A stretch of 64,000 nucleotides of DNA from Nitrososphaerota archaeon (GTDB lineage Archaea > Thermoproteota > Nitrososphaeria > Nitrososphaerales > JACQRY01). The notes under the pieces are model-generated. The model ran no database searches and was not told the origin of the DNA. It was given only the letters and a program-made list of their open reading frames with translations. This document shows, one piece after another, positions 8,220 to 22,404 of this stretch. Within the stretch, counting starts at the first letter, position 1. Each line of letters starts with the position of its first letter. A program made the translations under genes and the position numbers. The stretch covers positions 10,050 through 74,049 of the forward strand of contig JACPCU010000021.1 of assembly GCA_016184315.1 (NCBI GenBank). The letters run 5' to 3'.

Positions 8220-10262
8220 ATGGCTTTGACTCAATCCAAGCTGGCAGAGCAACTGGAATCATTTCTCAAGGGCTTCAAGGAGCGGGGAGGAGCATCCAAG
8301 TACCGCAACAGGGTTTCAGAGATGCCGGCTTCAGCCACGAAGTCGGTAGTAGTGGACTACGATGATCTAGCCAAATTTGATGTAGAACTCGGAGAAATGA
8401 TCATCCAGAAGCCCGACGACATTTTTCCCGCATTCAAGTCTGCCCTCTACGAGGCTCTCCGAACAGAAAACGCGTCCTACGCTGAATCCATCAGACGCCA
8501 ACTAGCAGTGCGAGTAAGAAGCATCCCTGAAACCATCCACCTAAGACTCGTAACTTCAGAGCATCTGGATCGCCTTATCGCCGTTACAGGAATGGTAGTA
8601 CGAGCCTCAGAGCTGAAACCTATGGCTGTTAGAGCAGCCTTCGCATGCAGAAAATGCGGCAACATCAACATGGTCGAGCAGGACACCATGCTGCTGAAGA
8701 GGCCGTCCAAATGCGAGCAGTGTGACGAGGTGAAGAGACTCGAATTAGACGAGAAGAGAACCGAGTTCATCGACTACCAAGTCCTGCGCCTACAGGAGCT
8801 GCCTGAAGAGCTGCCCCCCGGCCAACTACCTCAATATTTCGACATAGATTTGGTAGGAGACACAGTGAACGCCGCTAGACCAGGTGACCGTGTCAACCTC
8901 ACAGGCATAGTTAGAGCTGAGGCGGAGTACTCTCAGAGCGCAGGCAGACTCAGAATCTTCAGGTCCCGGATAGATGCGAACTATGTGCAAGTCATTGGGC
9001 GAGAGGCAGACCAGATACAGCTCACCAGGGAAGACGAGGATCTGATAAAGAGGATAGCTCGCCGCACAGAAGCCTACCAACAGCTAATTACATCAATTTC
9101 ACCCTCCATACACGGCTTCGAAACCCAGAAAGAAGCCATACTACTCCAAATGGTCAGCGCACCCCAGAAAACCCTACCAGACGGCACCACCATTAGAGGA
9201 GACATCAACGTTCTCATGGTGGGAGACCCCGGTACAGCGAAATCAGAGCTGCTGAAGTACAGTGCTAGGATTGCTCCCCGAGGCCTCTACACTTCAGGCA
9301 GAGGATCTACTGCTGCAGGTTTGACTGCGGCGGTGGTTAGGGAGAAAAACGGAATGATGATGCTGGAGGCGGGAGCCGTGGTCTTGGCGGATCAAGGGGT
9401 AGCCTGTATAGATGAATTTGACAAGATGAGGACTGAGGATCGTAATGCACTCCACGAGTGCATGGAGCAGCAGACCTGCAGCGTAGCCAAAGGCGGAATC
9501 GTCGCAACTCTTAACGCAAGAACGTCTATCCTCGCAGCCTCCAACCCCGTCCTCGGAAAATACGATCCCTTCAGAAACATTTCTGACAACGTGAATCTCC
9601 CTATTCCACTGTTAACCAGGTTCGACTTGATCTTCGTGGTTAGAGACGTTCCCGATAGGGCCTCAGACGAAAGAGTAGCAAAACATATTCTCACTATTCA
9701 CAGGAAGGGAACCTTCGCTTCGCCTCCGCCCCTAGACTTCGACGTGCTGAGGAAATACTTGATCTACTCGAAGAAAGTTGAACCGGTGATCACAAAGGAG
9801 GCTGAAGAGAGGATACTGGAGTATTACCTGCAGATGCGTGGAGTAGGCTCAGACAACATGATCACCGTGACCCCGAGGCAGCTGGAAGCCTTGATCCGTC
9901 TGGCAACCGCTAGGGCAAGGCTCCTGCTGAGAGAGAAGGTCACCGAGGATGACGCTCTGCACGCTATAGGATTGATGAGAAGGATGCTTGAAACCGTCGG
10001 CGTAGATGTGAAAAGCGGGAAGGTGGATATGGGCGTCTTCCACGGCAAGCCCCTCAGTGAACGTAACCTGCTGGAGACTGCTTTGGACATATTCAAGACC
10101 CTTGAAGGCGCCCAGAAGAACCCTGTTGACGGTAAAGTCTTCGTGCAGGAACTTGTGAAGACAGGGAGATTCACCGAAGAGGACGCCAAACGCATGCTTA
10201 ACAGCCTATACAGAAGCGGCCAAATATACGAAGTCAAGACAGGGTTCTACAGAAAGATCTAG
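8220..10262 (+). CDS. mcm: MCM replicative helicase
   Basis: 680 aa. Zn finger CRKCGN...CEQC, Walker A GDPGTAKS, Walker B CIDEFDKM, SILAASNP, arginine-finger region LLTRFDLIFVV, C-terminal winged-helix. No intein. Confidence 0.95.
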   Translation: MALTQSKLAEQLESFLKGFKERGGASKYRNRVSEMPASATKSVVVDYDDLAKFDVELGEMIIQKPDDIFPAFKSALYEALRTENASYAESIRRQLAVRVRSIPETIHLRLVTSEHLDRLIAVTGMVVRASELKPMAVRAAFACRKCGNINMVEQDTMLLKRPSKCEQCDEVKRLELDEKRTEFIDYQVLRLQELPEELPPGQLPQYFDIDLVGDTVNAARPGDRVNLTGIVRAEAEYSQSAGRLRIFRSRIDANYVQVIGREADQIQLTREDEDLIKRIARRTEAYQQLITSISPSIHGFETQKEAILLQMVSAPQKTLPDGTTIRGDINVLMVGDPGTAKSELLKYSARIAPRGLYTSGRGSTAAGLTAAVVREKNGMMMLEAGAVVLADQGVACIDEFDKMRTEDRNALHECMEQQTCSVAKGGIVATLNARTSILAASNPVLGKYDPFRNISDNVNLPIPLLTRFDLIFVVRDVPDRASDERVAKHILTIHRKGTFASPPPLDFDVLRKYLIYSKKVEPVITKEAEERILEYYLQMRGVGSDNMITVTPRQLEALIRLATARARLLLREKVTEDDALHAIGLMRRMLETVGVDVKSGKVDMGVFHGKPLSERNLLETALDIFKTLEGAQKNPVDGKVFVQELVKTGRFTEEDAKRMLNSLYRSGQIYEVKTGFYRKI

Positions 10263-10279: not shown

Positions 10280-12451
10280 TTGAAGCTGGAATCCCTTCCT
10301 CTACCTCAGCCCCTAATAACGCTCCTCAACGAGCAGGGGTACACAGATCTCTACCCTCCCCAGCAACTAGCCTATGAAGCAGGGATATTCGATGGAGCAA
10401 ACCTCCTGGTAACCACTCCCACAGCCTCAGGAAAGACACTTGTCGCCATAATGGCTACAGGGCGACTCATCTTGAAAGGGTTGGGGAAAGCAGTCTACCT
10501 GACTCCTCTAAGAGCATTAGCCAGCGAGAAATACGAGGAGTTCAAGGCTCTTGAACAACTCGAGAAGCCTGACGGAAGTAGCGTAAGAGTGGCGATTTCA
10601 ACCGGAGACTACGATTCTTCCGGCGAATCACTGGGATCTGGCGACGTAATCATTCTCACCAATGAAAGGTTCGACTCCATACTCAGACACAACGCGTCAT
10701 GGATAGAACATGTAAAGCTCTTCGTCGCAGACGAAGTTCATCTCGTAGGCGACGGACACCGCGGTCCGACCCTTGAAACTCTGCTCACCAAAATTCTTGC
10801 CTTCGCCTCAGACTCACAGATCTTGGCTTTGAGCGCCACGGTGACCAATTCTGAGACGATCGCTAAGTGGCTCGGCGCCAAGCTGGTGGATGTGAAGTGG
10901 AGACCGGTTAAGCTGCTGGAGGGAGTCTACCACTATAATCAGATAGTGTTCGCTGATGGCTCAAGCAGAAACATTGTCCCTTCAGGTAGAGGCGGACCTA
11001 TCGATGCTGCCCTAGACTCTTTGCGGAACGGTGGTCAAAGCCTAGTTTTCACAGAGACGAGAAGGCGAGCTGTAAGCTTAGCTACAAAGTCCTCTGAAGT
11101 AGTGGCGAAACTTCTGTCGCAGAAGGAGAAGCGTGAAGCCATAGGGATGTCAGAGGAGATCATGGCTGAAGGGGAGGAGACAGAGCTCAGCAGAAATCTA
11201 GCCAAGGCCGCTTCCGGGGGATCTGCTTTCCACCATGCGGGTCTGAGCTCTGAGCACCGGAGAATAGTTGAAGACGGTTTCAGGAGAGGCGTGATCAAGG
11301 TTCTATGCGCGACTCCGACTCTAGCCGCAGGGGTCAACCTCCCAGCTAGACGGGTCGTGGTCAGCAGCCTGATGAGGTATGACACGGAGTATGGGGGTCA
11401 GACTCTGCTCAGCGTCTTGGAGTATAAGCAGTTGGCGGGGCGAGCCGGTAGACCAAAGTTCGACACAGTTGGCGAAGTTGTAGTGGTTACTCCTCCCTCT
11501 ATGGAACCTCAGGACGTGATAGAGCAGTATGTGAAAGGAGAGCCTGAGCCTCTCCGTTCCCAGCTGTCGAACATCTCTGCTCTGAGAACCCATATTCTCG
11601 CTGCAATAGCGACTTACCCCGGGATGTCCAAACAAGACCTGAACAACCTGTTCTCGAAGACCCTGTTCGCAATACAATACCAGAAGGAGACAGTGGAAGC
11701 AAGGGTTTCCCGAGGATTAGACTATCTTCTAGAAGAAGGTCTAGTGGAGGCAAGAGGCATACGTTTCATAGCCACCGAGTTTGGCAGACGCGTGTCCATG
11801 CTTTACATCGATCCAGCTACGGGCGTGCTCTTCAAAAACGCTTTGAAACACGCAGCCGATGGCGCTGACAAAACGGTAGGCATCCTTCACTTGGTAGCCT
11901 CTTGCCCTGACTTCACGCCCAAGTTCTATTTCAGGAACCATGACTGGGAGGAAGCCATAGAATTCCTCGAAGAGCATAAGGACGAATTCATTCTTCCTAT
12001 GGCCAAGGAGAGAAGCCTTAGCTTCGGAGATGCTTTGAAGGATTTCCGAACCCTGATGGCTATGCACGGATGGATCAACGAGCTGCATGAAGACAAGCTG
12101 CTCAACAGATACGGCGTCGAACCCGGGGACCTGCACAGGGCTGTGGAGAACGGGGACTGGCTTCTCTACTCTTTGGGCGAAATCGCCAAGCTCGTGGGGA
12201 AGAACGCTCTTCTCAGGGAGATCGGGGAAGTCCGAGAGAGGAACCGCTACGGAATCAAGAAGGAACTCATTCCTCTGACCACTCTTAAGGGAGTGGGCAG
12301 AGTCAGGGCAAGGACTCTTTACAATGCTGGCTACACCAGTCTCGAAAAGGTTTCAGCGGCGAATGTCGATGCAATTGCAACTCTTCCAAAGATAGGTGTG
12401 AAGACGGCTAAGCTGATCAAACAACAGCTCCAAAAGAGGAGAAGCCGATAG
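10280..12451 (+). CDS. hel308: Hel308/Hjm-type Ski2-like DNA helicase
   Basis: 723 aa with a TTG start. Walker A TPTASGKT, DEVH box (ADEVHLVGD), SAT, motif VI QLAGRAGRP, C-terminal helix-hairpin-helix (LKGVGRVRARTLYNAGY). Confidence 0.88.
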   Translation: MKLESLPLPQPLITLLNEQGYTDLYPPQQLAYEAGIFDGANLLVTTPTASGKTLVAIMATGRLILKGLGKAVYLTPLRALASEKYEEFKALEQLEKPDGSSVRVAISTGDYDSSGESLGSGDVIILTNERFDSILRHNASWIEHVKLFVADEVHLVGDGHRGPTLETLLTKILAFASDSQILALSATVTNSETIAKWLGAKLVDVKWRPVKLLEGVYHYNQIVFADGSSRNIVPSGRGGPIDAALDSLRNGGQSLVFTETRRRAVSLATKSSEVVAKLLSQKEKREAIGMSEEIMAEGEETELSRNLAKAASGGSAFHHAGLSSEHRRIVEDGFRRGVIKVLCATPTLAAGVNLPARRVVVSSLMRYDTEYGGQTLLSVLEYKQLAGRAGRPKFDTVGEVVVVTPPSMEPQDVIEQYVKGEPEPLRSQLSNISALRTHILAAIATYPGMSKQDLNNLFSKTLFAIQYQKETVEARVSRGLDYLLEEGLVEARGIRFIATEFGRRVSMLYIDPATGVLFKNALKHAADGADKTVGILHLVASCPDFTPKFYFRNHDWEEAIEFLEEHKDEFILPMAKERSLSFGDALKDFRTLMAMHGWINELHEDKLLNRYGVEPGDLHRAVENGDWLLYSLGEIAKLVGKNALLREIGEVRERNRYGIKKELIPLTTLKGVGRVRARTLYNAGYTSLEKVSAANVDAIATLPKIGVKTAKLIKQQLQKRRSR

Positions 12452-12517: not shown

Positions 12518-13843
12518 ATGGGGTTCAGCGGTCTGGCAGCCTATTTGTCTGAAGGCTACGCGTCAAACCGACTCTCCCGCTATTTGGTCGCGATGCGCCA
12601 CAGAGCCCCCGCTGGCTACCGTGTGTGGAGCAATAATTCTGTGCTAAGACTGCCACAGGGAGACACCAGACTTCCAGAAGCACCGATGATCCTTGCAGGC
12701 TTTCTCCGCCGATCTCTGGAAAAACACGATGCTCCTCTTGTTCACGGAGTCATGTACAATGCTCAGCCTTTCCCATCCACAGACAAGTCACCGGACAAAG
12801 CTCTACGAACCATGTCAGAATACCTTGCAGACTGCGACGGCTCTTACGCGTTGATTGCACCCTGTGGAGAAGGTCTGATCTTCGCCAGAGACCCCATGGG
12901 GCAGAAACCGCTATGCTTTGAGCGGAGCGCAAAGGGTTTGGGGCTTGCAAGCGACTCTTACGCCTTGTCCGAACAGGGTTCAGCGGTATCTGTTGAGCCC
13001 GGCAAGGTCTATTACATGGATCTCAATAGAGACCAGCGCATCCAGATACCTCCGCCAAAACCAAGTTTCCCTGTTCCCGCTTCATTGCAGGAAGCTGCTG
13101 TCAACACGTTAACCCTTCTTTCGGAGTCCTTGGATCATAGAGCAATTAGTGGAAGCAAGGTTGCGGTGGCATCTTCAGGAGGAATCGACAGCGCTTTGAT
13201 CGCCCATCTTCTCTCCAAGAGATGTAACGTGACGGTCTTTTCTGTTTCCGCCGAGGGTTCGAAGGACGCTGTTGAAGCGAAGAGGTTTGTCAAAGCTTTG
13301 GATGCGGAGCACAAGGAGATTTCTGTGTCCGCAGAGGCCGTAACAGAAATTATTCCGTCTGTTTCCAAGCTGATTGGTGGCGGTAGCCCTATGGATTTGG
13401 GCATAGGAACAGCTATTCATCTAGCTGCTAAAGCTGCTTGCGAAGACGGGTTTGAAGTTCTCTTCTTGGGGCAGCTGGCTGATGAGCTATTCGGAGGCTA
13501 CTCACGCTACCTGCATGTTTTGAAAAGTAGAGGCGAGGCGGCTGTTACGCAAACCATGCATAGCGACGTTCACTACGCTTATAGGAGCAACTTCGAGAGA
13601 GATGAAAGAGCAGCTTCGCCTTTCCTCGACCTAGTGCTTCCATACGCATACTTGCCCCTAGTGCAATACGCCCTAAACATTCCTTTGACATACAAGCTCG
13701 ACTCTAAGAGCGGTGAACGGAAGATCGTACTCAAGCGGGCCGCGGCTGAAGCCGGTGTACCCGAAGAGATATGGTCGAAGCCCAAGAAAGCAGTCCAGTA
13801 CAGCTCGGGGCTCCAGAAGATAGTGGAGAAGTTCCTAAGCTGA
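12518..13843 (+). CDS. Asparagine synthase (AsnB)-like PP-loop ATP pyrophosphatase with a degenerate glutaminase domain
   Basis: 441 aa. PP-loop VAVASSGGIDSALIA. The N-terminal domain resembles the class II amidotransferase fold (RHRAPAGY aligns with RHRGPDG) but starts MGFSG instead of MCG. Confidence 0.65.
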   Translation: MGFSGLAAYLSEGYASNRLSRYLVAMRHRAPAGYRVWSNNSVLRLPQGDTRLPEAPMILAGFLRRSLEKHDAPLVHGVMYNAQPFPSTDKSPDKALRTMSEYLADCDGSYALIAPCGEGLIFARDPMGQKPLCFERSAKGLGLASDSYALSEQGSAVSVEPGKVYYMDLNRDQRIQIPPPKPSFPVPASLQEAAVNTLTLLSESLDHRAISGSKVAVASSGGIDSALIAHLLSKRCNVTVFSVSAEGSKDAVEAKRFVKALDAEHKEISVSAEAVTEIIPSVSKLIGGGSPMDLGIGTAIHLAAKAACEDGFEVLFLGQLADELFGGYSRYLHVLKSRGEAAVTQTMHSDVHYAYRSNFERDERAASPFLDLVLPYAYLPLVQYALNIPLTYKLDSKSGERKIVLKRAAAEAGVPEEIWSKPKKAVQYSSGLQKIVEKFLS

Positions 13844-13861: not shown

Positions 13862-14293
13862 CTAGATGTCGAGGACTACCGTCGCTTGCCAGCCGTCAGC
13901 AGTCTGCCGCACTTCGAACCGGTGCATCGTGACTGCTTTCACATCTGCAATCAAGTTATGCTTCTTCATATCGATCTCTTCTCCATAGACATTCGCCTCC
14001 AACCTAAACTTCTCATCCACGTGCTCTATTGAAACATCGTATTTGCTGAAGAGGAGTAGCTCAGCATCCTTGTAGAAGACAAGCTCTTGAAGAAAATCGA
14101 AGAGCAGCCGCTCCACGTCGCCTGCTTCAAGAACAATCTTCCGCTCAACCTTCCTTTCCACCTTGTCAATATTGCGCACCATTACGACCTCTGTAGCCTC
14201 AGCAGCAGAGCCGAAGAGCTCAGAAAGTGTCCTTCCCTCCGCCCGGAAAGCTACGTCCGCCAGCGCAATGTCTTCGATGAAGATGTAGGGCAT
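13862..14293 (-). CDS. Archease (RtcB activator)
   Basis: 143 aa. MPYIFIEDIALADVAFRAEGRTLSELF...VKAVTMHRFEV is typical archease. Its ATG overlaps the rtcB TGA by 1 nt (TGATG at 14293). Confidence 0.88.
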   Translation of the reverse strand: MPYIFIEDIALADVAFRAEGRTLSELFGSAAEATEVVMVRNIDKVERKVERKIVLEAGDVERLLFDFLQELVFYKDAELLLFSKYDVSIEHVDEKFRLEANVYGEEIDMKKHNLIADVKAVTMHRFEVRQTADGWQATVVLDI

Positions 14294-15759
14294 CAGCCCT
14301 TCACGTTGCCAATAGGTATGAATCTGACCACAGGCTTAGAGATCCCGGCTACTCGAACAGCTTCAATCACGTCGTCAATATCCTTGTAGGCCGGCCCAGC
14401 CTCCTCTGCAACACCCTCATAGGAAACGGAGCGCACATAGATCCCTCTCTGCTCCATGTCTCTCAGCAGACGGTCGCCGCGAAATAACTTCTTCGCCTTG
14501 GTTCGACTCATAGTCCTCCCAGAACCATGACAGGTGCTGAAGAAGGTCTCCCTTCCACCAGGTGTTCCCACTAGCAGATAGGATCCTGTCTCCATGCTGC
14601 CCCCTATGATAATAGGCTGCCCAAGAGGACGGTATTCTTCAGGCATGTCTCCCATCCCCGGCCCGAAGGCTCTTGTCGCTCCCTTACGGTGCACCAGCAC
14701 GTCGCGGTTCACCTTGTCAACCTCATATCTTTCCAGCTTGGCTGTGTTGTGAGCAACATCGTAGACTTGGTGTAAGCCGAGGCTCTCCGCGTCCTTCTTG
14801 AACACGTTTGCGAAGACCTCTCTGATTCTGTGCAGGATCACCTGTCTGTTGACGAAGCTCATGTTTATGCCGCATTTCATTCCAGCGAAATAGTCTTGGC
14901 CTTCAGGCGAATGGAACGGTGCGCATGCCAGCTCGCGGTCAAGGATCTTGATGCCGTATTTGCGCTCCATTACGTTGAGGAAGACTTGGAGGTAGTCGCT
15001 GGCTACCTGGTGTCCGAAGCCTCTGGAGCCGCAGTGGAACATCACGACAATCTGGTTAGGCAGAGTTATCCCAAAGGCTTTTGCAAGTTCCTTGTCATAT
15101 ACGAATTCAGGCTTCACGACCTGCACTTCGAGATAGTGGTTCCCCGACCCTAAGGTGCCGATCTGATTCAGCCCACGGGTAACCGCTCTATTACTGATCT
15201 TGGATGTGTCAGCGCCCTCAACGCATCCACTTTCCTCAGTCTTCTCCAGATCTTCCTCCCATCCGTATCCCTTCTCGATGCACCAGCGGCCTCCCTTCTC
15301 AACCGCGGCGCGAAACTCGCTTGCGGACAGCTTGACGAACCCTGATGAGCCTACTCCAGCGGGAACACGGTGAAACAGTTGATCAACAAGCTCCTTCAGC
15401 TTGGGGCGAACATCATCATAGGTGAGATTAGTCAGAACCAGACGCATCCCGCAGTTGATGTCGAAGCCGATCCCTCCCGGAGAGATGACCCCCTCCTCAG
15501 CATCCATAGGGGCAACCCCACCGATAGGAAACCCGTAGCCAGAATGCCCATCAGGCATACAGTAAGCATACTGCAAAATGCCCGGGAGAGTAGCTACATT
15601 GGTGATCTGGTCAAACACCTGCTCATCCATGGTCTGCATAATCTTCTCAGTCGCATAGAGCCTAGCGGGAACACGCATTCCCTGCTTGAAGCTGGGAGGA
15701 ATCTCCCAGACCACATCACTGACGCGTCGAACCTGTTGGGGGAAGGTCAATTCTAACAC
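14293..15759 (-). CDS. rtcB: RNA-splicing ligase RtcB
   Basis: 488 aa. Motifs MPDGHSGYGFPIGG, DINCGMR, GSGNHYLEVQ, HCGSRGFGHQ, HGSGR. Confidence 0.95.
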   Translation of the reverse strand: MLELTFPQQVRRVSDVVWEIPPSFKQGMRVPARLYATEKIMQTMDEQVFDQITNVATLPGILQYAYCMPDGHSGYGFPIGGVAPMDAEEGVISPGGIGFDINCGMRLVLTNLTYDDVRPKLKELVDQLFHRVPAGVGSSGFVKLSASEFRAAVEKGGRWCIEKGYGWEEDLEKTEESGCVEGADTSKISNRAVTRGLNQIGTLGSGNHYLEVQVVKPEFVYDKELAKAFGITLPNQIVVMFHCGSRGFGHQVASDYLQVFLNVMERKYGIKILDRELACAPFHSPEGQDYFAGMKCGINMSFVNRQVILHRIREVFANVFKKDAESLGLHQVYDVAHNTAKLERYEVDKVNRDVLVHRKGATRAFGPGMGDMPEEYRPLGQPIIIGGSMETGSYLLVGTPGGRETFFSTCHGSGRTMSRTKAKKLFRGDRLLRDMEQRGIYVRSVSYEGVAEEAGPAYKDIDDVIEAVRVAGISKPVVRFIPIGNVKG

Positions 15760-15961
15760 CTAATTCTAAGAATAGATATCCGCAAGACAGTGGCCAAGAA
15801 GCACGCTTTTAAGATTTGGGCTCTGAAATCACGTTGTTTCACAATCACCCCTTTTGGTTGGCGGTCACTCCAATGGGTGTTCTTGTAAGTTCTCTGATTT
15901 ATCCGCATGGCGTTAATGCAAAGGAATAAATTTCGGCTAGAAGGAATAGTTAGACGAATCA

Positions 15962-16114
15962 ATGCCCATTTGTCCTCGGTGCGGGAAATTTGTCAAGGAT
16001 CTTCGAAAACATAGAAGTAGGAACAGGTGTAGAGTAAAGGGGAAACGCAAGGCGGAGGCACTACCCTTACCAAGCAGTCTTCAAGAAAAACTGACAAATC
16101 CTATGGTCTATTAG
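15962..16114 (+). CDS. Hypothetical small basic protein with a C-x2-C...H-x4-C zinc-knuckle-like pattern
   Basis: Below the ORF-track size cutoff. Own translation: MPICPRCGKFVKDLRKHRSRNRCRVKGKRKAEALPLPSSLQEKLTNPMVY (50 aa). It sits at the left edge of the Rhs island. No other support. Confidence 0.25.
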   Translation: MPICPRCGKFVKDLRKHRSRNRCRVKGKRKAEALPLPSSLQEKLTNPMVY

Positions 16115-16150
16115 GGAATTTGATGGTTCAAGACGTAAACAAGGTGAGGG

Positions 16151-16462
16151 ACCTCTTCAACAAGGCCACGGTGCACCATCAGCTACACGTATGATCAGGT
16201 GGGAAACAGGTTGACGAAGAAAGAAGGCACCACAACTGTAGCCTACACCTATGGAGCCTACAACAGGCTCACCTCCACAAACAGCTCTCTCACATTCACC
16301 TATGATAACAACGGGAACACGCTCAGCAAGATTGAGGGTGGAGACACTTGGAACTACACTTACAACTACAACAACATGATGACGAAAGCAGTCAAGAACA
16401 GCGTTACTCAAGGACAGTATTTCTACGATGGGGAGAATAAGAGGGTGAAAGTCATCGAAGGT
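16151..16462 (+). repeat. YD-repeat block, copy A (paralogous to 21031..21350 and the degraded copy at 22125..22345)
   Basis: Encodes TSSTRPRCTISYTYDQVGNRLTKKEGTTTVAYTYGAYNRL...YNYNNMMTKAVKNSVTQGQYFYDGENKRVKVIEG, against copy B TSSTGPWGTISYTYDQVGNRLTKTEGSTTSYTYGTYNRL...YDYNNMMTKAVKNSVTQGQYFYDCDNRRVKTIES. 16373-16416 and 21247-21290 match at 43 of 44 nt. Confidence 0.9.
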
Positions 16463-17557
16463 TCCACTCTGATCAACATGTTCAACGGTTTAAACATCAT
16501 CTACCAGAAGAACATGACGAGTGGAAGCATATCTAAATTCTTCTTCGCCAACGGTCTGGTGATAGCTAAGAACAATGGTTCGTCGACCTATTATCATCAG
16601 GACTCTCTTGGAAGCACAAGGTTGACCACCAGCTCATCGAAGCTCCAGATATTCGCTTCGAACTACAAGCCTTTCGGACCCTTGTACAACCAATCGGGAA
16701 CAGAGAAGGTGAAGTACACGGGGAAATGGGAGGACTCACCTACCAAGCTATACTACTTCGGAGCTCGTTACTATGACCCGGAGATAGGCAGATTCACAAC
16801 TCAGGACACAGTTGTGACCATCAACCAATATATCTACGCCAATAACAATCCGTACAAATATATCGGCCCCACGGGAAGAGAACCGGTGAGAAAGGAAATT
16901 GGTTCGTATGAGTTGATAGTCGATTACATAAGAGGACTCGAAGCGTCTCATCCTGGTGCTAAACCAACAGAAATATTGAATATGATAGTCAACAGAGAAG
17001 GCCCAGGCTTTGGGCAACCTAAATTTGGTGACGGATATCCAAAAGATGCTCGCTATATTTACTCGGAAAGCGCAGGCTTTGTGGATATGCTTCATTTCTT
17101 TGATAACGCTAAGTTGGGTGCCAATTACGGGATCGGGCCCTTCGACCCTGCCGGCATTGCACTCGACTATGGCGTGGAGATTGGACAGGCCGCGACGAGA
17201 GATAGACCGAGTGCGTTCAGCTACGAGGACATCACTTCGAATCGACTAGGACGAGCGTTCGGAGTGAATGTCCTGACTTCTAGCATCCTTGTGACTGTTG
17301 GCATCTCTGACGATAAACCTTTGTCACAACAATTCTCTGATTACATGAAGAATATAGGTGCCTCAACAAATCCAGAAGAAACCATCAAGAAACAGCATCC
17401 TGGGTTGTGGGAAACCATCCCGGAAAACCGGGACGCCGTACAGAAGACAGGTTTCCTACCGGCTTCAAGGACATGTGTCATCTGTTATGGGCCTGCTATT
17501 CCAGATTCTTTGGGATCAATACCAATAGTCGGTGGAATTCTGTCATGGGCGTTTTAG
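16199..17557 (+). CDS. Orphan Rhs/YD-repeat C-terminal module 1: YD repeats, Rhs core end, and an unassigned ~230-aa C-terminal (toxin-like) domain
   Basis: ORF track 452 aa. The frame is open from 16148 (after TGA at 16145-16147) with no ATG; the first candidate start is GTG at 16199. YD repeats, then the Rhs-associated core signature YYFGARYYDPEIGRFTTQD, then a degenerate tip motif YANNNPYKYIGPTGRE (canonical form NNPxxxxDPxG). An unrelated domain follows, ending in a hydrophobic tail (GSIPIVGGILSWAF). Confidence 0.78.
   Translation: MGNRLTKKEGTTTVAYTYGAYNRLTSTNSSLTFTYDNNGNTLSKIEGGDTWNYTYNYNNMMTKAVKNSVTQGQYFYDGENKRVKVIEGSTLINMFNGLNIIYQKNMTSGSISKFFFANGLVIAKNNGSSTYYHQDSLGSTRLTTSSSKLQIFASNYKPFGPLYNQSGTEKVKYTGKWEDSPTKLYYFGARYYDPEIGRFTTQDTVVTINQYIYANNNPYKYIGPTGREPVRKEIGSYELIVDYIRGLEASHPGAKPTEILNMIVNREGPGFGQPKFGDGYPKDARYIYSESAGFVDMLHFFDNAKLGANYGIGPFDPAGIALDYGVEIGQAATRDRPSAFSYEDITSNRLGRAFGVNVLTSSILVTVGISDDKPLSQQFSDYMKNIGASTNPEETIKKQHPGLWETIPENRDAVQKTGFLPASRTCVICYGPAIPDSLGSIPIVGGILSWAF
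16538..16807 (+). repeat. Rhs core-end block, copy 1 (paralogous to 18065..18340)
   Basis: FFFANGLVIAKNNGSSTYYHQDSLGSTRLTTSSSKLQIFASNYKPFGPLYNQSGTEKVKYTGKWEDSPTKLYYFGARYYDPEIGRFTTQD, against KYFYANGLMIARVNPFATTYFHQDSLGSTRLTTSASKLQLFASNYKPFGPVYNQSGTEKVKYTGKWEDSATKLYYFGARYYDPEIGRFTTQDP. Confidence 0.9.
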
Positions 17558-17574
17558 GCATCATAAGGAGGTCG

Positions 17575-17985
17575 ATGCTACTCAGAACCTATCTGGCGTT
17601 GGTAACGGCTTCTTCTTTGCTAGGTATCTATTCGGGCATTTATGTCGAAAATGTGAAAGCGTCGAATCCTGGGGTAGATCCAGAGCTGTTATTGGAATTT
17701 GATCCGGTTTTCCCCATAAATGGACTGTTCATCATATGCATAATGATTTTCAGTGTCTATATCCTAGCAGCGTCCATCGACAAGACGTATCCGACCTTTA
17801 TTCTGCTTTTGCCTTTAGCCGAACTGGCATTAATTGCGATAAGGATTTTCGGAGACGAAAGCCTGTTTTACCCAGTGTTATCCGCCCAGATACTGTTGTC
17901 GTCGCTCCTACTTCTTGCGTCCTATGTTTCGCCTTCAAACCCATCTAGACTAGAGATAAGAAGACGGGAAGGTAAGGCAGATTAA
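17575..17985 (+). CDS. Four-TM membrane protein; candidate immunity protein for Rhs module 1
   Basis: ORF track 17407..17985 overlaps the Rhs ORF. Plausible starts are ATG at 17545 or ATG at 17575, which is preceded by AGGAGG (17566-17571). Hydrophobic segments: LLRTYLALVTASSLLGIYSGIYV, INGLFIICIMIFSVYILAASI, TFILLLPLAELALIAIRIF, VLSAQILLSSLLLLASYV. The role is inferred from position only. Confidence 0.5.
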   Translation: MLLRTYLALVTASSLLGIYSGIYVENVKASNPGVDPELLLEFDPVFPINGLFIICIMIFSVYILAASIDKTYPTFILLLPLAELALIAIRIFGDESLFYPVLSAQILLSSLLLLASYVSPSNPSRLEIRRREGKAD

Positions 17986-17989
17986 GTGG

Positions 17990-18959
17990 TTGAAACTAAT
18001 ACCAGAGTCTTCACATGCCTTGGCTTACATAATTCAGGAGAGGGATGTCAACGTCGTCAGCAAATACTTCTATGCTAACGGTTTGATGATTGCTAGGGTT
18101 AATCCTTTCGCTACGACGTACTTCCATCAGGACTCATTGGGCTCAACGAGGCTGACGACTAGCGCATCTAAGCTCCAGTTATTCGCTTCCAACTACAAGC
18201 CTTTTGGGCCAGTGTATAACCAGTCGGGAACGGAGAAGGTGAAGTATACGGGGAAATGGGAGGACTCAGCAACCAAACTATACTACTTCGGGGCTAGATA
18301 CTACGACCCTGAGATAGGGAGGTTCACCACGCAGGATCCCGTGCTGGGAACATCTGACGATCCGCAGACGCTGAACCGTTACCCGTATGCTAAGAATAAT
18401 CCGTTGAAGTATGTTGATCCTGATGGCAGGTTCATAGACACTATCTTCGATGCCTTTGGTATCCTCAATTCCTTTCATACCGACCTTCGGAGTTATCAGG
18501 AAGACTGTTCGTCATATTGACGATGCAATCCGCGGCGTTAGGAAGGTAGATCTCGACGATCTTACTGCGGCGACTAAGAAGATAGGCGGGTTGATGGATG
18601 ATACGCTAAGTCACCGAGGACATTTTGAAGACATGAAAGCGAACGGGCTTGTCGAGGCTCAGACCTTTGAGGCTTTTCAGCAAGAGGCTAAAGATTTTGT
18701 TCATAAGGGTGTGACTGCAGCCAAGAGTGGTGATAGCAACTATAAGATCTATGCCCAGAACGACGGAGCCTATGCAATCGTTGACACTAAGAGGCAGATA
18801 TTTGCTATCTATGATCCCGAACAGGACAAGGTTAGGACATTCTTCTCACCCCTACAAGGTGATGCCGAACATCGTTCGATAACGATGCAACAATACATCG
18901 AAATGAAGCTGGAAGCTGGACGGCAAGGAAAAACAGAAGGCTGGAGGCCCACTGGTTAA
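17990..18959 (+). pseudogene. Orphan Rhs C-terminal module 2: Rhs core end with a canonical DPxG tip and an unassigned toxin-like domain, split by a +1 frame shift near 18465-18480
   Basis: ORF 17990..18520 has YYFGARYYDPEIGRFTTQDP...YAKNNPLKYVDPDGRFIDTIFDAFGILNS and then stops. ORF 18450..18959 in the next frame continues sensibly (IPFIPTFGVIRKTVRHIDDAIRG...SHRGHFEDM...YKIYAQNDGAYAIVDTKRQIFAIYDPEQDKVRTFFSP). Skipping one nt near 18471 joins them into about 320 aa. Confidence 0.65.
18065..18340 (+). repeat. Rhs core-end block, copy 2 (paralogous to 16538..16807)
   Basis: See 16538..16807. Roughly four-fifths nt identity by eye, with near-identical stretches (gagaaggtgaagta[c/t]acggggaaatgggaggactca). 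Confidence 0.9.
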
Positions 18960-19661
18960 ATGGCTGTCAGAAAGAATCTTCTTGAGCATGACCCTTACTT
19001 TGACTCACTAATACGTCGTAAGTCGGAAGGCGTGATAGAAGCCCTAGGGAGAGTCGAAAAGGGTCTAAAGGAAGATCGGAATTCAAGAGACTTTCCTTGG
19101 GATGAACCATTTAGTTTCTTGGGCATGCTTGTCTACGATCTGGAAGAGGCGGAGGAGAACGGATACGATATCTCCCCCTATGAGCGAATTAGAGTGGAAT
19201 GCGTTGAAAATGTGAAGGCGTTCTGCCAAAAATGGGGAAAGAAATACCTTGATAAGGTTAGGGATTTCATGAAATTCTGGTATGCGGATTCATATGCAGT
19301 GTGGATCAGGAAATTAGAGGAGATGATTAAGAGCGGAGAGCTCGTCAAAGAATCCCCTATACATATGAAGATTTCATGCTTCGAATCTCGCGTGATAAAA
19401 GCTTACGGGCTTGCGGGGCTAAGAGCTGTATCAATAGCAAAAGAAATAGACATGCACGAAATTGAGCGTATAGTAGCTGAGTGTGATGAACGCTTTCGAA
19501 AATTACTTCCTGCGATAGCCAAGACCTACGCCAATGTTCCTAACCTATTCAAGGGAAATTCCCCTAGGACTTGGTGGTGGCACCATGAAGCGCGCCGCCT
19601 GCATGAGATGTATAGAGCCCAGTTGTCACCTGGAACCCCTGACAGAGATTACTACACATAA
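18960..19661 (+). CDS. Hypothetical helical cytoplasmic protein; candidate immunity protein for Rhs module 2
   Basis: 233 aa. Its ATG directly follows the stop of the toxin-domain ORF (18957-18959). W/K/E-rich helical sequence (WGKKYLDKVRDFMKFWYADSYAVWIRKLEEMIKSGE) with no TM segment or signal. No family recognised; the role is inferred from position. Confidence 0.5.
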   Translation: MAVRKNLLEHDPYFDSLIRRKSEGVIEALGRVEKGLKEDRNSRDFPWDEPFSFLGMLVYDLEEAEENGYDISPYERIRVECVENVKAFCQKWGKKYLDKVRDFMKFWYADSYAVWIRKLEEMIKSGELVKESPIHMKISCFESRVIKAYGLAGLRAVSIAKEIDMHEIERIVAECDERFRKLLPAIAKTYANVPNLFKGNSPRTWWWHHEARRLHEMYRAQLSPGTPDRDYYT

Positions 19662-21435
19662 AGATGATCTAACGGATCAGACCTACGATAAGGCTGGGAA
19701 TCTTCTTACAGTTAAGGATGCTAAGGGCCAGTTGACGAGGTTCTACTATGATGACTTGAATAGGAATATCAAGACCACGTTTCCGGACAACAAGAATCAG
19801 ACTGGGTTCTACGATGTGTTGGGGAATGTGGTGGGTGTGAAGGATTCTAATGGTAACTCTACGAGCTTTGCGTATGATGAGGGGGGTAGGCTGTTCTATG
19901 CTGGGAGCGGCGCGGGGAGGGATAATCTTGTCGCTTGGTGGCTCTTTGACGAAGGCTTGGGCGGCTCTGTTAGGGATAGTAGTGATAACAAGAATTCGGG
20001 GGTCTTGGTGAACGGCCCCGTGTGGGTTGAGGGGAAGCAGGGTAGGGCCTTGAGTTTTGATGGGGTGGATGATTCCGCGGACTTTGGGGATAAGGCTGGT
20101 TTCCGTTTCGGGGGCGGGAGCTTCAGTTTGAGCGCGTGGGTGAAGACTTCGTCGGCCTCTAATCAGGGTATTATTGACAAGAAGTTCGGCTTCGGCGCCG
20201 GGGTGGCTGGTTACTCGCTTTTCGTGAATACGAACGGTAATCTGCGTTACCAGATTTCGGATGGGGCGAGTCAGAATGATAATAATGCTGGTGTGGTGAG
20301 GGATGGGAACTGGCATCATGTGGCGATGGTGAGGAATGCGTCTAGCTCTAGGGTCAATCTGTATGTTGATGGTGTGCAGGTGTTAAGTGACTCTACTACT
20401 GTAGGCAATTTGGACAATGCTCAAAGCCTGTACGTTGGCTACGGTGCCGGTGGGGGAAACTTTTTCCCTGGGTCAATCGATGATGTTAAGGTGTTTTCGA
20501 GGGCTTTGGGTGCGGCGGAGGTTTTGGCTGAGTATCGTTCCCAAGGCGTGTCAGTCATCTATGATAAGATGAGTAACAGGGTGTCTATGAGCGACTCCGC
20601 TTCCGCTGCCACGTATGGTTATGATGCTTTGAACAGGCTGCTCAGCGAAGCCAAGACTGTTGACGGTTCACAGTACACTACATCCTTTACCTATGATGCT
20701 GGGAGCCGTGTGACGAAACTGACTTATCCTGATGCTTACCAGTTGAGCTACCAGTATGATGATTTGGATAGGGTGAAGAGCCTCGGGGGCTTTGCTAACT
20801 TCACTTACACGAAGGACAATAAGGTTAAGACGATTACTTATGGTAATGGTATTCAGACGACGTATACCTATGATTTGAGGAGCAGAGCAACGAGAATACT
20901 TGTCCAGGACGGTTCAACCACTAAGCTGGATTTGAACTATGCTTACAAAGGTAACGGGGATGTAGAAAGCATTGATGATGGGTATGCTCCTACAGATGAG
21001 ACCTACAGCTACGATGGCTTGGACAGGTTGACCTCTTCCACTGGGCCTTGGGGCACCATAAGCTACACTTATGATCAAGTAGGGAACAGGTTGACCAAGA
21101 CTGAGGGCTCCACGACAAGTTACACCTATGGAACATACAATAGGCTTACCCAAGCAGGCTCAACCAACTACACATACGATAATAACGGCAACATGATTAC
21201 GAAGAACGATGGCACAGACTCATGGACATACACCTACGATTACAACAACATGATGACCAAAGCAGTCAAGAACAGCGTTACTCAAGGACAATACTTCTAC
21301 GACTGTGATAATAGACGCGTCAAGACTATTGAGTCTGGGAGCACGACGATATTATGGTTACACTCAAAAAGTAGCTGGTGGATCCTAAGGTTCGTCCGTG
21401 ATGGCTACTGTACCATTTCTCTTATCGTAGATTAG
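19534..21435 (+). CDS. Rhs/YD-repeat core fragment with an embedded LamG/concanavalin-A-like lectin domain; lacks an N-terminal secretion region and the Rhs core end/toxin tip
   Basis: 633-aa ORF. Recognisable YD repeats begin at 19663, 2 nt after the stop of the previous gene (DDLTDQTYDKAGNLLTVKDAKGQLTRFYYDDLNRN). The LamG_3-like block is about 19921-20548 (LVAWWLFDEG...GRALSFDGVDD...FSLSAWVK...WHHVAMV...LYVDGV...IDDVKVFSRAL). More YD repeats follow. Homology to copy A ends near 21350 and the last ~28 codons are out-of-context sequence. Confidence 0.8.
   Translation: MFLTYSREIPLGLGGGTMKRAACMRCIEPSCHLEPLTEITTHKDDLTDQTYDKAGNLLTVKDAKGQLTRFYYDDLNRNIKTTFPDNKNQTGFYDVLGNVVGVKDSNGNSTSFAYDEGGRLFYAGSGAGRDNLVAWWLFDEGLGGSVRDSSDNKNSGVLVNGPVWVEGKQGRALSFDGVDDSADFGDKAGFRFGGGSFSLSAWVKTSSASNQGIIDKKFGFGAGVAGYSLFVNTNGNLRYQISDGASQNDNNAGVVRDGNWHHVAMVRNASSSRVNLYVDGVQVLSDSTTVGNLDNAQSLYVGYGAGGGNFFPGSIDDVKVFSRALGAAEVLAEYRSQGVSVIYDKMSNRVSMSDSASAATYGYDALNRLLSEAKTVDGSQYTTSFTYDAGSRVTKLTYPDAYQLSYQYDDLDRVKSLGGFANFTYTKDNKVKTITYGNGIQTTYTYDLRSRATRILVQDGSTTKLDLNYAYKGNGDVESIDDGYAPTDETYSYDGLDRLTSSTGPWGTISYTYDQVGNRLTKTEGSTTSYTYGTYNRLTQAGSTNYTYDNNGNMITKNDGTDSWTYTYDYNNMMTKAVKNSVTQGQYFYDCDNRRVKTIESGSTTILWLHSKSSWWILRFVRDGYCTISLIVD
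21031..21350 (+). repeat. YD-repeat block, copy B (within the core fragment)
   Basis: See 16151..16462. Confidence 0.9.
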
Positions 21436-21822
21436 GCGAAGCTTGTTCAGAATATCTCTTCCAAGGACACTTGGAATCCTCAGTATGTTCTCATCAATCT
21501 TATCGTGTCTCACTACTAACAGCTCTGTAAGTGACTCTCTATGCTCAGCCCCCTCATCGGTTCTGAAGTAGAGCTCCGCATCCCTTGCAACAAATGTTCC
21601 CACAACACCTCCTAAGCCTAGTAGGGGCTGTTTCGATTCCCCGAGCCTAGCGTATGAAATGCCCATCGATAAAACGTCCTTATCCAGAATGGCGGTCTTT
21701 GTGGCGCCGGTATCGATCAGTAACTCTATGCTCTGCCTTATGTTGAGCTTAGGCACCGCGACTACAGCAGTAAGATAGGCTCCTTCTAAGGGCCCGGCTC
21801 TAAAGTAGCCTTTCAGACGCAC
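21385..21822 (-). CDS. Retropepsin-like (clan AA) aspartic protease, small single-domain prokaryotic type
   Basis: 145 aa with a GTG start at 21822. Catalytic signature LIDTGATKTAIL (D-T-G-A) and later SVLGRDILNKL (flap/dimer-interface-like). Resembles the archaeal AF_0612-type clan AA proteases (family name from memory). Confidence 0.75.
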   Translation of the reverse strand: MRLKGYFRAGPLEGAYLTAVVAVPKLNIRQSIELLIDTGATKTAILDKDVLSMGISYARLGESKQPLLGLGGVVGTFVARDAELYFRTDEGAEHRESLTELLVVRHDKIDENILRIPSVLGRDILNKLRLIYDKRNGTVAITDEP

Positions 21823-22083
21823 CTATACCACAAGAACCATATTAATCGGTTTCTTGGTCACGTATTCTATCGCTACCTCTGAGTATCTCCCAGCCAGTTT
21901 CTTTCTCAACCGTGCCGCGAGCCTCTTCAGGTCCCCGTCGTAGTCGATCACGCTTTTGTCGAGAACAGCTACCCATTTGTCGTCGTATCTTTTGGTCAGC
22001 TGTTTGTAGCTTAAATTAAGCCACTTTCGGTTCTCCTCCGCTCTAGAAATAAGTTCAGCGATGGACATAGTACCCTGACTCAA
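21823..22083 (-). CDS. Small DUF5678-like protein, translationally coupled to the aspartic protease
   Basis: 86 aa. Its stop TAG (21825-21823) abuts the protease GTG (21822). The pattern W..LSYKQL...Y.DKWVAVLDKSVIDYDGDLKRL resembles small antitoxin-like beta-proteins annotated DUF5678 (family name from memory, unverified). Confidence 0.45.
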   Translation of the reverse strand: MSQGTMSIAELISRAEENRKWLNLSYKQLTKRYDDKWVAVLDKSVIDYDGDLKRLAARLRKKLAGRYSEVAIEYVTKKPINMVLVV

Positions 22084-22124
22084 CTTATTGTAAAGAGCTT
22101 AAATTCTTATCTACCGCATATAGT

Positions 22125-22345
22125 TATGACGGCTTGGATAGACTGATATCTTCGACAGGCACGTGGGGCACCATCAGCCACACTTACGGAACTTACAACA
22201 GGCTTAGGCAGGTTCGACCAACTATACTTACGATAACAATGGGAACATGATCAGCAAGATAGCTGGGGGAGACACTTGAAACTACACCTACAACTACAAC
22301 AACAGGAAGAGCAAAGCTGTGAAGAACAGCGTTACACAAAGAAAA
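22125..22345 (+). pseudogene. Degraded third copy of the YD-repeat block (Rhs fragment C)
   Basis: Reads YDGLDRLISSTGTWGTISHTY-GTYNRL..(frame break)..YTYDNNGNMISKIAGGDT*NYTYNYNN..KAVKNSVTQ. An internal deletion removes the DQVGNRLTK.. segment. There is an indel frame break, and TGG has become TGA at 22277-22279. Confidence 0.75.
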
Positions 22346-22404
22346 CACCTCGTGACCGTGCCGGCTACGCCTTCGAACAGACAACCAATTCTCTATTTAT
22401 AGAG

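Follow-up and report, generated by a model that had tools for sequence, protein, structure and literature searches.

We analysed a window of 64,000 nucleotides, meaning here the whole stretch of DNA under study, from a groundwater metagenome-assembled genome (MAG) of a Thaumarchaeote (Nitrososphaerota; contig JACPCU010000021.1 of 75,273 bp). Its positions 16148-17985 probably represent a decayed orphan Rhs module, hereafter tip 1, in which a toxin tip of the CapCone-1 family is followed by a candidate immunity gene for a protein with four transmembrane (TM) segments, the 4-TM protein. CapCone-1 belongs to the Lipocone superfamily (Burroughs, Nicastro and Aravind, eLife 2025; PMC12419801), and its toxins are predicted to attack the head groups of membrane lipids; according to the same paper, the immunity proteins of Lipocone toxins are all TM proteins or lipoproteins. 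Both the toxin family and the tip 1 protein itself have already been published, and the case is largely explained and does not represent a new kind of system. The small additions made here are an archaeal Rhs-borne subtype of the toxin, its polytopic partner families and the decayed state of tip 1.

The tip 1 gene is an N-terminally truncated Rhs gene that occupies positions 16148-17557 of the window. Exact look-up of its translation retrieved the GenBank protein MBI2184782.1 (448 aa from a TTG start at 16211; window 16211-17554), labelled as an RHS repeat-associated core domain-containing protein. A 90-residue core of this protein is printed verbatim in the file CapCone-1.tsv of PMC12419801, which likewise lists the core of its nearest homologue, MBI2547048.1. 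The preliminary description of this DNA had found no matching toxin family and had proposed a new effector; this has to be abandoned, because MBI2184782.1 itself is listed in the published family. On these sequence grounds we assign the C-terminal domain of tip 1 to CapCone-1.

The domain also carries the signatures that Burroughs and colleagues defined for the family. In H2, the segment G64-F-V-D67-M-L-H70 has the Gly six positions before the His and VD at positions -4/-3; H3 contributes the acidic residue E98 (VEIGQ), which aligns with the HE of DUF4056; and H4 (S109-A-F-S112-Y-E-D115-I-T-S118-N119-R-L-G122) shows the SxxSxx pattern with a Phe before the Ser at -3, followed by an Asn at +4 after a small residue (S118-N119) and by a Gly near the helix end (G122). 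Seven of these positions (G64, D67, H70, E98, S109, E114, and D115) were invariant in alignments of 27 and of 61 sequences. The catalytic residues guessed beforehand in VDMLHFF, VEIGQ, and SAFSYED were well chosen: D67, H70, E98, S109, E114, and D115 are all among the invariant ones.

A word-indexed protein search with the C-terminal domain recovered one relative, MBI2547048.1 from an Aenigmarchaeota MAG (47% identical, E 6e-46), which has the intact junction NPYKYFDPNGKEP; it missed MBI2184782.1 itself, a protein clustered under an unrelated 42-aa representative. An exhaustive search with a two-sequence profile hidden Markov model (HMM) recovered 187 representatives at E<=1e-3. Nearly all of them share G[WF][IV]D..HF and S[AG][FY]SYEDLPS[ND], and in nearly all of them the toxin domain stands directly after an Rhs DPxG-x-EP junction. 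With E values of 6e-46 between the toxin domain and its nearest homologue and of 4e-19 for the Rhs-core model TIGR03696, these sequence matches are not due to chance.

No Pfam or NCBIfam model matched the C-terminal domain above threshold. The SAFSYEDITSNRLG stretch gave a match to DUF4056 (PF13265; E 0.002) that, at 17.8 bits, lies below the gathering cut-off of 23.6. At the profile level the relation is clear: hhalign of the toxin family against 15 CapCone-DUF4056 sequences from the supplement of the paper gave a probability of 97.5% (E 8e-12) across H2-H4, and several members of the toxin family carry precomputed PF13265 matches. DUF4056, which corresponds to CapCone-DUF4056, shares the motifs YT..GG.ID..H and SAFS.ED..SN with the tip 1 family, but in DUF4056 proper H2 and H3 are separated by a long insert, and no fusion to Rhs was present in the sequences examined.

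An AlphaFold2 model of the domain, computed with the 61-sequence alignment, reached a pLDDT of 85.2 and a pTM of 0.84 (with two sequences only, the pLDDT was 46.8 and the model useless). A beta-hairpin (57-60/64-67) and two further strands are predicted to precede three helices (68-81, 88-103, and 115-130) that bear H70, E98, and D115, respectively; the order of elements in the model appears to correspond to the published description of a 'clasp' followed by H2-H4. Searches of the PDB by sequence (phmmer and profile) gave no match, and the best Foldseek match of the 85.2-pLDDT model in the PDB had an E value of 1.9, TelC not being retrieved. The hydrophobic C-terminal tail mentioned in the preliminary description is present and was modelled with low confidence. 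The same holds for the modelling of an 11-residue hydrophobic insertion after H4 (LTSSILVTVGI, around 17272-17304), which was absent from all aligned relatives. The DNA of this insertion resembles an imperfect 15-nt tandem duplication (cTGACTtcTaGCATC / gTGACTgtTgGCATC). An archaeosortase-type signal like PGF-CTERM was considered for the tail and rejected: the tail of the relatives is short, amphipathic and basic, and is not a TM helix with a basic end.

The Rhs part of tip 1 is incomplete. As stated in the preliminary description, the frame opens at 16148 without an ATG: an in-frame TGA (16145-16147) lies directly 5' of it, the earliest candidate starts are GTG 16199 and TTG 16211, and the first ATG does not occur before 16376. 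Homology to the Rhs core fragment located further downstream (compared over 21030-21351) was also said to begin at once, and we found that similarity does start at 16150 (72% at the amino acid level, 77% at the nucleotide level). TIGR03696 matched residues 173-243, next to the variable tip as in members of the Rhs family, with a score of 68.8 bits (cut-off 32.5, E 4.2e-19). Upstream of the tip domain there are only 246 residues; the N-terminus with its start codon and its plug or trafficking region and most of the YD shell are missing, and no signal peptide or N-terminal trafficking domain was found in the protein. A 50-aa Cys-rich basic open reading frame (ORF; MPICPRCGKF..., 15962-16114) without a family match lies upstream in the same frame, with several stops in between.

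The autocleavage junction is altered as well. In tip 1 it reads NNNPYKYIGPTGREP, with a Gly codon (GGC) at 16865-16867, so that GPTG stands where the relatives have the second DPxG motif and the catalytic Asp is absent. All 170 relatives with an Rhs tail before the toxin domain have Asp at this position (DP in 129 of them) and none has Gly; the loss of the Asp in tip 1 is exceptional among relatives. The preliminary description had both Asp positions of the motif replaced, which overstates the change: one catalytic Asp has been lost to Gly, and the other position was never a conserved Asp, since only position 1 of DPxG is conserved as Asp and position 3 varies. In comparison with the nearest homologue and with a second orphan module located downstream (tip 2), tip 1 also has a 7-residue in-frame deletion just 5' of the Asp to Gly site and DT in place of DP in the first motif. 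In Photorhabdus Rhs1, the catalytic Asp sits in the second DPLGL motif and the replacement of the equivalent Asp (D1338N) abolished both C-terminal cleavage and toxicity (PMC8636562).

The window contains four Rhs pieces on the plus strand, none of them complete, and no intact rhs gene within its 64 kb. The truncation, the Asp to Gly change, the 7-residue deletion, and the lack of an intact rhs gene in the window together indicate that the toxin of the tip 1 copy is most likely undeliverable. The suspicion that the module had been disabled or silenced is in this respect supported by the missing N-terminus, the lost Asp, and the lack of an intact rhs gene.

Many DPANN members of the family (P0003, P0005, P0006, P0011, P0013; L004, L046, L047) lack the YD shell; in them, no more than the final ~40 core residues of Rhs (RFxQPD...NPQxLNRYxYxxNNPYKYxDPxGxEP), with DPxG kept, lie between a signal peptide and the toxin. 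Such proteins suggest that a full shell is not always needed, and one could imagine that tip 1 is still a working weapon, a protein of 448-452 aa produced from TTG 16211 or GTG 16199, exported by another route, and either uncleaved or cut by another protease. We consider this improbable, because the shell-less DPANN forms still retain DPxG, whereas tip 1 has lost the catalytic Asp found in 170/170 relatives, and the loss of the equivalent Asp abolishes the toxicity of Rhs1 (PMC8636562). The protein also has no signal peptide or N-terminal trafficking domain, and its core homology begins exactly at the frame opening, although every invariant toxin residue is kept, GenBank annotates a protein and not a pseudogene, and the toxin gene is closely linked to an immunity gene that is itself intact.

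The decay could also be apparent only, the truncation and the Asp to Gly change being artefacts of assembly or consensus and the real genome containing an intact rhs-CapCone-1 gene. Rhs repeats are difficult to assemble, the Asp to Gly change is a single transition, and tip 2 provides a case of a local problem. The toxin domain of tip 2 (Rhs/toxin part at 17960-18520) is split by a frameshift at 18450-18520, which corresponds to a 70-bp deletion in the assembly. Three independent Logan contigs, which come from runs of the same series (SRR12113401/422/426) and are otherwise 99.5-100% identical to the window, carry the extra 70 bp at 18460-18466; with them, tip 2 becomes one continuous ORF with VDPDGRF..., a hydrophobic WAWLGVDIVLTAIPFIPTFG segment, and a domain without a Pfam match. 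The MAG therefore has a local deletion or a minor variant at tip 2, and local assembly or consensus errors do exist in this region. Nevertheless, the sequence 5' of 16148 is unrelated, with several in-frame stops and the conserved housekeeping genes for RtcB and archease, the 7-residue deletion preserves the frame and is adjacent to the Asp to Gly change, and no other assembly of tip 1 or of the 4-TM gene is on record. Moreover, the Rhs pieces are only 77-84% identical to one another at the DNA level, and they are thus neither collapsed assembly repeats, a possibility that we rejected, nor good substrates for recent recombination. We therefore hold an artefact at tip 1 to be improbable and retain the view that the module has probably decayed.

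The ORF that follows the toxin gene was initially described as a 4-TM protein encoded by 17575..17985. Hydropathy confirmed the four hydrophobic segments, which make up nearly the whole protein, but the start has probably to be moved upstream. The GenBank entry (MBI2184783.1, hypothetical) begins at ATG 17545, its first 13 nt being shared with the 3' end of the toxin gene; AAGGAGGT stands 5' of ATG 17575. Judging from sequence conservation, we take ATG 17545 to be the probable start and in any case no less likely than 17575, because the additional N-terminal peptide (MGVLGIIRRS) is kept in a paralogue. This paralogue, MBI2185333.1 (HYU39_10315, 143 aa), was recovered by a profile search on a different, 32,264-bp contig of this MAG; its identity to the 4-TM protein of the window is 69% overall, and the two are nearly identical in TM3-TM4. 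A JGI metagenome scan gave no match to its contig.

The preliminary description had read the two genes as a toxin/immunity pair and had suggested looking for a 4-TM neighbour in homologous loci. The gene pair is indeed conserved, and an immunity function may be proposed on this basis: a polytopic membrane ORF lies directly 3' of the toxin in 11 out of 12 archaeal-type relatives. The Aenigmarchaeota locus has a 4-TM ORF of 127 aa that overlaps with the stop codon of the toxin gene and resembles the 4-TM protein of the window (pairwise BLASTP E 1e-8); all three Woesearchaeota genome loci have an ORF with 4-5 TM segments directly 3' of the toxin, and on metagenome contigs a membrane ORF directly follows seven of the eight further archaeal-type toxins. 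These partners fall into two types that follow the toxin subclades, one of ~127-172 aa with 4 TM segments and one of ~180-207 aa with 5-6. The 4-TM protein of the window is of the first type and has the TM3 Glu (LPLAE) and the TM4 Gln of that type. When an HMM was made from seven partners other than the window protein, the 4-TM frame was its sole match (E 9e-5) among the 493 ORFs of at least 50 aa in the window. No Pfam family matched the 4-TM protein or the polytopic partners. The bacterial relatives (candidate phyla radiation [CPR], Acidobacteria, and others) have different, membrane-anchored partners, in agreement with the rule that the immunity proteins of Lipocone toxins are all TM proteins or lipoproteins.

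A contig of JGI 3300025323 (L048 1-5163; also L049) has a row of three Rhs-stub/CapCone-1 tips, each of them followed by its own polytopic membrane ORF (138, 201, and 145 aa); along this array the partners alternate between the two types, in step with the toxin subclade. In one Woesearchaeota locus (L004 963-2269), the C-terminal end of the membrane partner, ...SSFGKAPPRTQSFFSSVKSFFIRGSK, is almost a duplicate of the toxin tail of the subtype (...TPFGKAIPKQQKPSLFNRVKSFFG in tip 1). From these sequences it looks as if a toxin/immunity cassette had been inserted there 5' of the tail of an older toxin, and the conserved tail (G-x-A-[LIV]-P...FF) may serve as an arm for recombination on the downstream side.

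The paper on the Lipocone superfamily (PMC12419801) describes many families that act in the metabolism of lipids, peptidoglycan or exopolysaccharides, and the domain could accordingly be a housekeeping lipid-modifying enzyme with the 4-TM neighbour as its functional partner instead of an immunity protein. This we regard as very improbable: the domain is fused to the Rhs core here and in nearly all of the 187 relatives, variable tips occur in tandem arrays, each with its own membrane partner, the taxonomic spread is patchy, with no occurrence in the other Nitrososphaerota genomes scanned, and the GC content of the region is below that of the upstream housekeeping genes.

By analogy with TelC and PTDSS1/2, the toxin tip would be a soluble enzyme of four helices that has His, Glu and Asp in its active site and holds a lipid tail in its helical cone. 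TelC cleaves lipid II at the undecaprenyl-diphosphate bond and PTDSS1/2 swap phospholipid head groups (PMC12419801); for the tip, the prediction is that it hydrolyses or exchanges a head group linked through phosphate to a membrane lipid or polyprenyl carrier at the outer face of the target cell membrane. The envelope or membrane target proposed in the preliminary description thus stands as a prediction, with CapCone-1 toxins predicted to act on lipid head groups and with membrane-anchored immunity. To our knowledge, archaea of this kind do not have lipid II, which excludes lipid II as the substrate; candidates for an archaeal substrate, although speculative ones, are the head groups of ether lipids or dolichyl-phosphate glycan carriers. 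The 4-TM protein (146 or 136 aa, depending on the start) would be the cognate immunity protein and would presumably intercept the toxin at the membrane. With a toxin domain that keeps every invariant residue behind a broken delivery part, the tip 1 toxin is most likely not deployed and the module probably persists as a displaced remnant. The immunity gene may remain useful, and it and its paralogue may be what is still under selection.

Several points weigh against this interpretation. The enzymatic activity is extrapolated by analogy from TelC and PTDSS1/2, and all invariant positions of the toxin domain are preserved, an unexpected state for a gene that died long ago. The sequence is the consensus of a single MAG with at least one local error or minor variant nearby, and the Asp to Gly change requires one transition. 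For the immunity protein, the homology is weak, the nearest partner being 26% identical (E 9e-5), and membrane proteins are prone to similarity driven by composition.

Tip 1 resembles published CapCone-1 toxins in that the exact protein is listed among them, in all sequence signatures, in its position as the C-terminal tip of a polymorphic toxin, and in its membrane-associated immunity partner. The context table for CapCone-1 in PMC12419801 lists bacterial phyla only, with delivery by type VI secretion system, MPTase-DUF4157 or cystatin-like modules, and with BamE-like lipoprotein immunity. In contrast, the host is here an archaeon, delivery relies on an Rhs/YD shell (or on a bare signal peptide in DPANN), the partner is a polytopic 4-TM protein without a Pfam family, and the copy is truncated and has lost the cleavage Asp. 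BamE-like immunity proteins combine a soluble fold of two helices and three strands with a lipoprotein or single membrane anchor, unlike the four hydrophobic helices of the present protein. An Imm-4TM family has been reported with Min-Wnt, prok-TelC, and ClaspCone-2 toxins (PMC12419801).

The lipid II phosphatase toxin TelC of Streptococcus intermedius, whose immunity protein is TipC, belongs with CapCone to the ClaspCone-CapCone-TelC clade of the same authors; the two systems have in common the predicted layout of a His/acidic active site, a predicted extracytoplasmic action on lipid head groups, and immunity outside the cytoplasm. TelC is delivered by a type VII secretion system (LXG) and not by Rhs, and the Asp that prok-TelC proteins have six positions after the H4 Asp is L121 in tip 1 (D115+6). 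Comparison by hhalign with 16 prok-TelC sequences gave a weak probability of 29.6%, the order of motifs being congruent. Membership of the TelC family was rejected on account of the Leu at +6, this low hhalign probability, and the lack of a PDB match.

The organisation of the locus recalls the orphan Rhs tip/immunity modules of bacteria, in which a 5' stub homologous to the core and devoid of a start precedes a variable toxin domain with its immunity gene, and several pieces are arranged in tandem on one strand. It differs from them by the lack of an intact main rhs gene upstream or anywhere in the window and by stubs that are only 77-84% identical, which makes recent recombination unlikely. 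Since the cleavage Asp has been lost, re-joining tip 1 to a core would still give an uncleavable toxin.

Our scan of genomes recovered the toxin subtype in DPANN archaea, CPR, and other bacteria and did not find it in the other Nitrososphaerota genomes scanned, which suggests horizontal acquisition of the toxin module. CapCone-1 toxins are documented here on Rhs scaffolds in archaea (DPANN and a Thaumarchaeote), which are absent from the CapCone-1 listing in PMC12419801, as are at least two families of polytopic membrane partners without a Pfam model. As these archaea lack lipid II, the target of a Lipocone toxin among archaeal lipids and polyprenyl carriers becomes a concrete question.

A disabled toxin next to an intact immunity gene, with a second immunity paralogue elsewhere in the MAG, fits the retention of orphan immunity genes for protection. 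One may go further and imagine that the module records an arms race between archaeal lineages, the Thaumarchaeote, as a free-living or host archaeon, being 'vaccinated' against the lipid-head-group toxins of episymbionts. CapCone-1 tips of the tip 1 subtype otherwise occur in DPANN archaea (Aenigmatarchaeota and Woesearchaeota), the nearest apparently coming from the same groundwater project, and the Thaumarchaeote keeps two diverged copies of the polytopic immunity gene, one of them beside a disabled toxin. We consider this scenario rather unlikely; if it were true, the archaeal substrate (ether-lipid head groups or dolichyl-phosphate glycan carriers) would be a new class of substrate for Lipocone enzymes.

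The features of the Rhs locus are listed in Table 1.

Table 1. Coordinates of tip 1 and of the neighbouring Rhs remnants in the window.
Feature	Position	Strand	Remarks
Truncated Rhs/YD-repeat region of tip 1, ending in the Rhs-associated core	16148..16885	+	No N-terminus; TIGR03696 at ~16664-16876
Degenerate autocleavage region, QDTVVT...NNNPYKYIGPTGREP	16808..16885	+	DP to DT, 7-residue deletion, Asp to Gly
CapCone-1 (Lipocone superfamily) toxin domain, 223 aa + stop	16886..17557	+	Predicted active site: His70 17093-17095, Glu98 17177-17179, Asp115 17228-17230
Candidate immunity gene, 4-TM protein MBI2184783.1, 146 aa	17545..17985	+	Alternative ATG 17575 (136 aa)
Tip 2 orphan module	17960..19661	+	Intact VDPDGRF, frameshifted toxin domain, 233-aa downstream ORF
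Rhs core fragment (YD repeats and LamG), truncated at both ends	19534..21435	+	3' part homologous to the 5' end of tip 1
Fourth Rhs fragment, frameshifted	22116..22400	+	Homologous to the same core segment

Upstream of the Rhs remnants, the window encodes MCM (8220-10262, MBI2184777.1), a Hel308-like helicase (10280-12451), and an asparagine-synthase-like protein (12518-13843), followed on the minus strand by archease and RtcB (13862-15759). The GC content is 45-48% across the Rhs remnants (15500-19500), compared with 51-54% in the upstream housekeeping genes; no tRNA gene, as a hallmark of integration, was found anywhere in the window. The 233-aa ORF directly 3' of tip 2 (MBI2184786.1, 18960-19661) has no Pfam or NCBIfam match and was present on 6 contigs; it is likely the immunity gene of tip 2. 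Finally, a two-gene unit on the minus strand (21385-22083), which encodes a retropepsin-like aspartyl protease (weak RVP and gag-asp_proteas matches, DTGA) and a DUF5678 protein, is flanked by the truncated core fragment on one side and by the fourth Rhs stub on the other; its insertion may have disrupted the Rhs locus.

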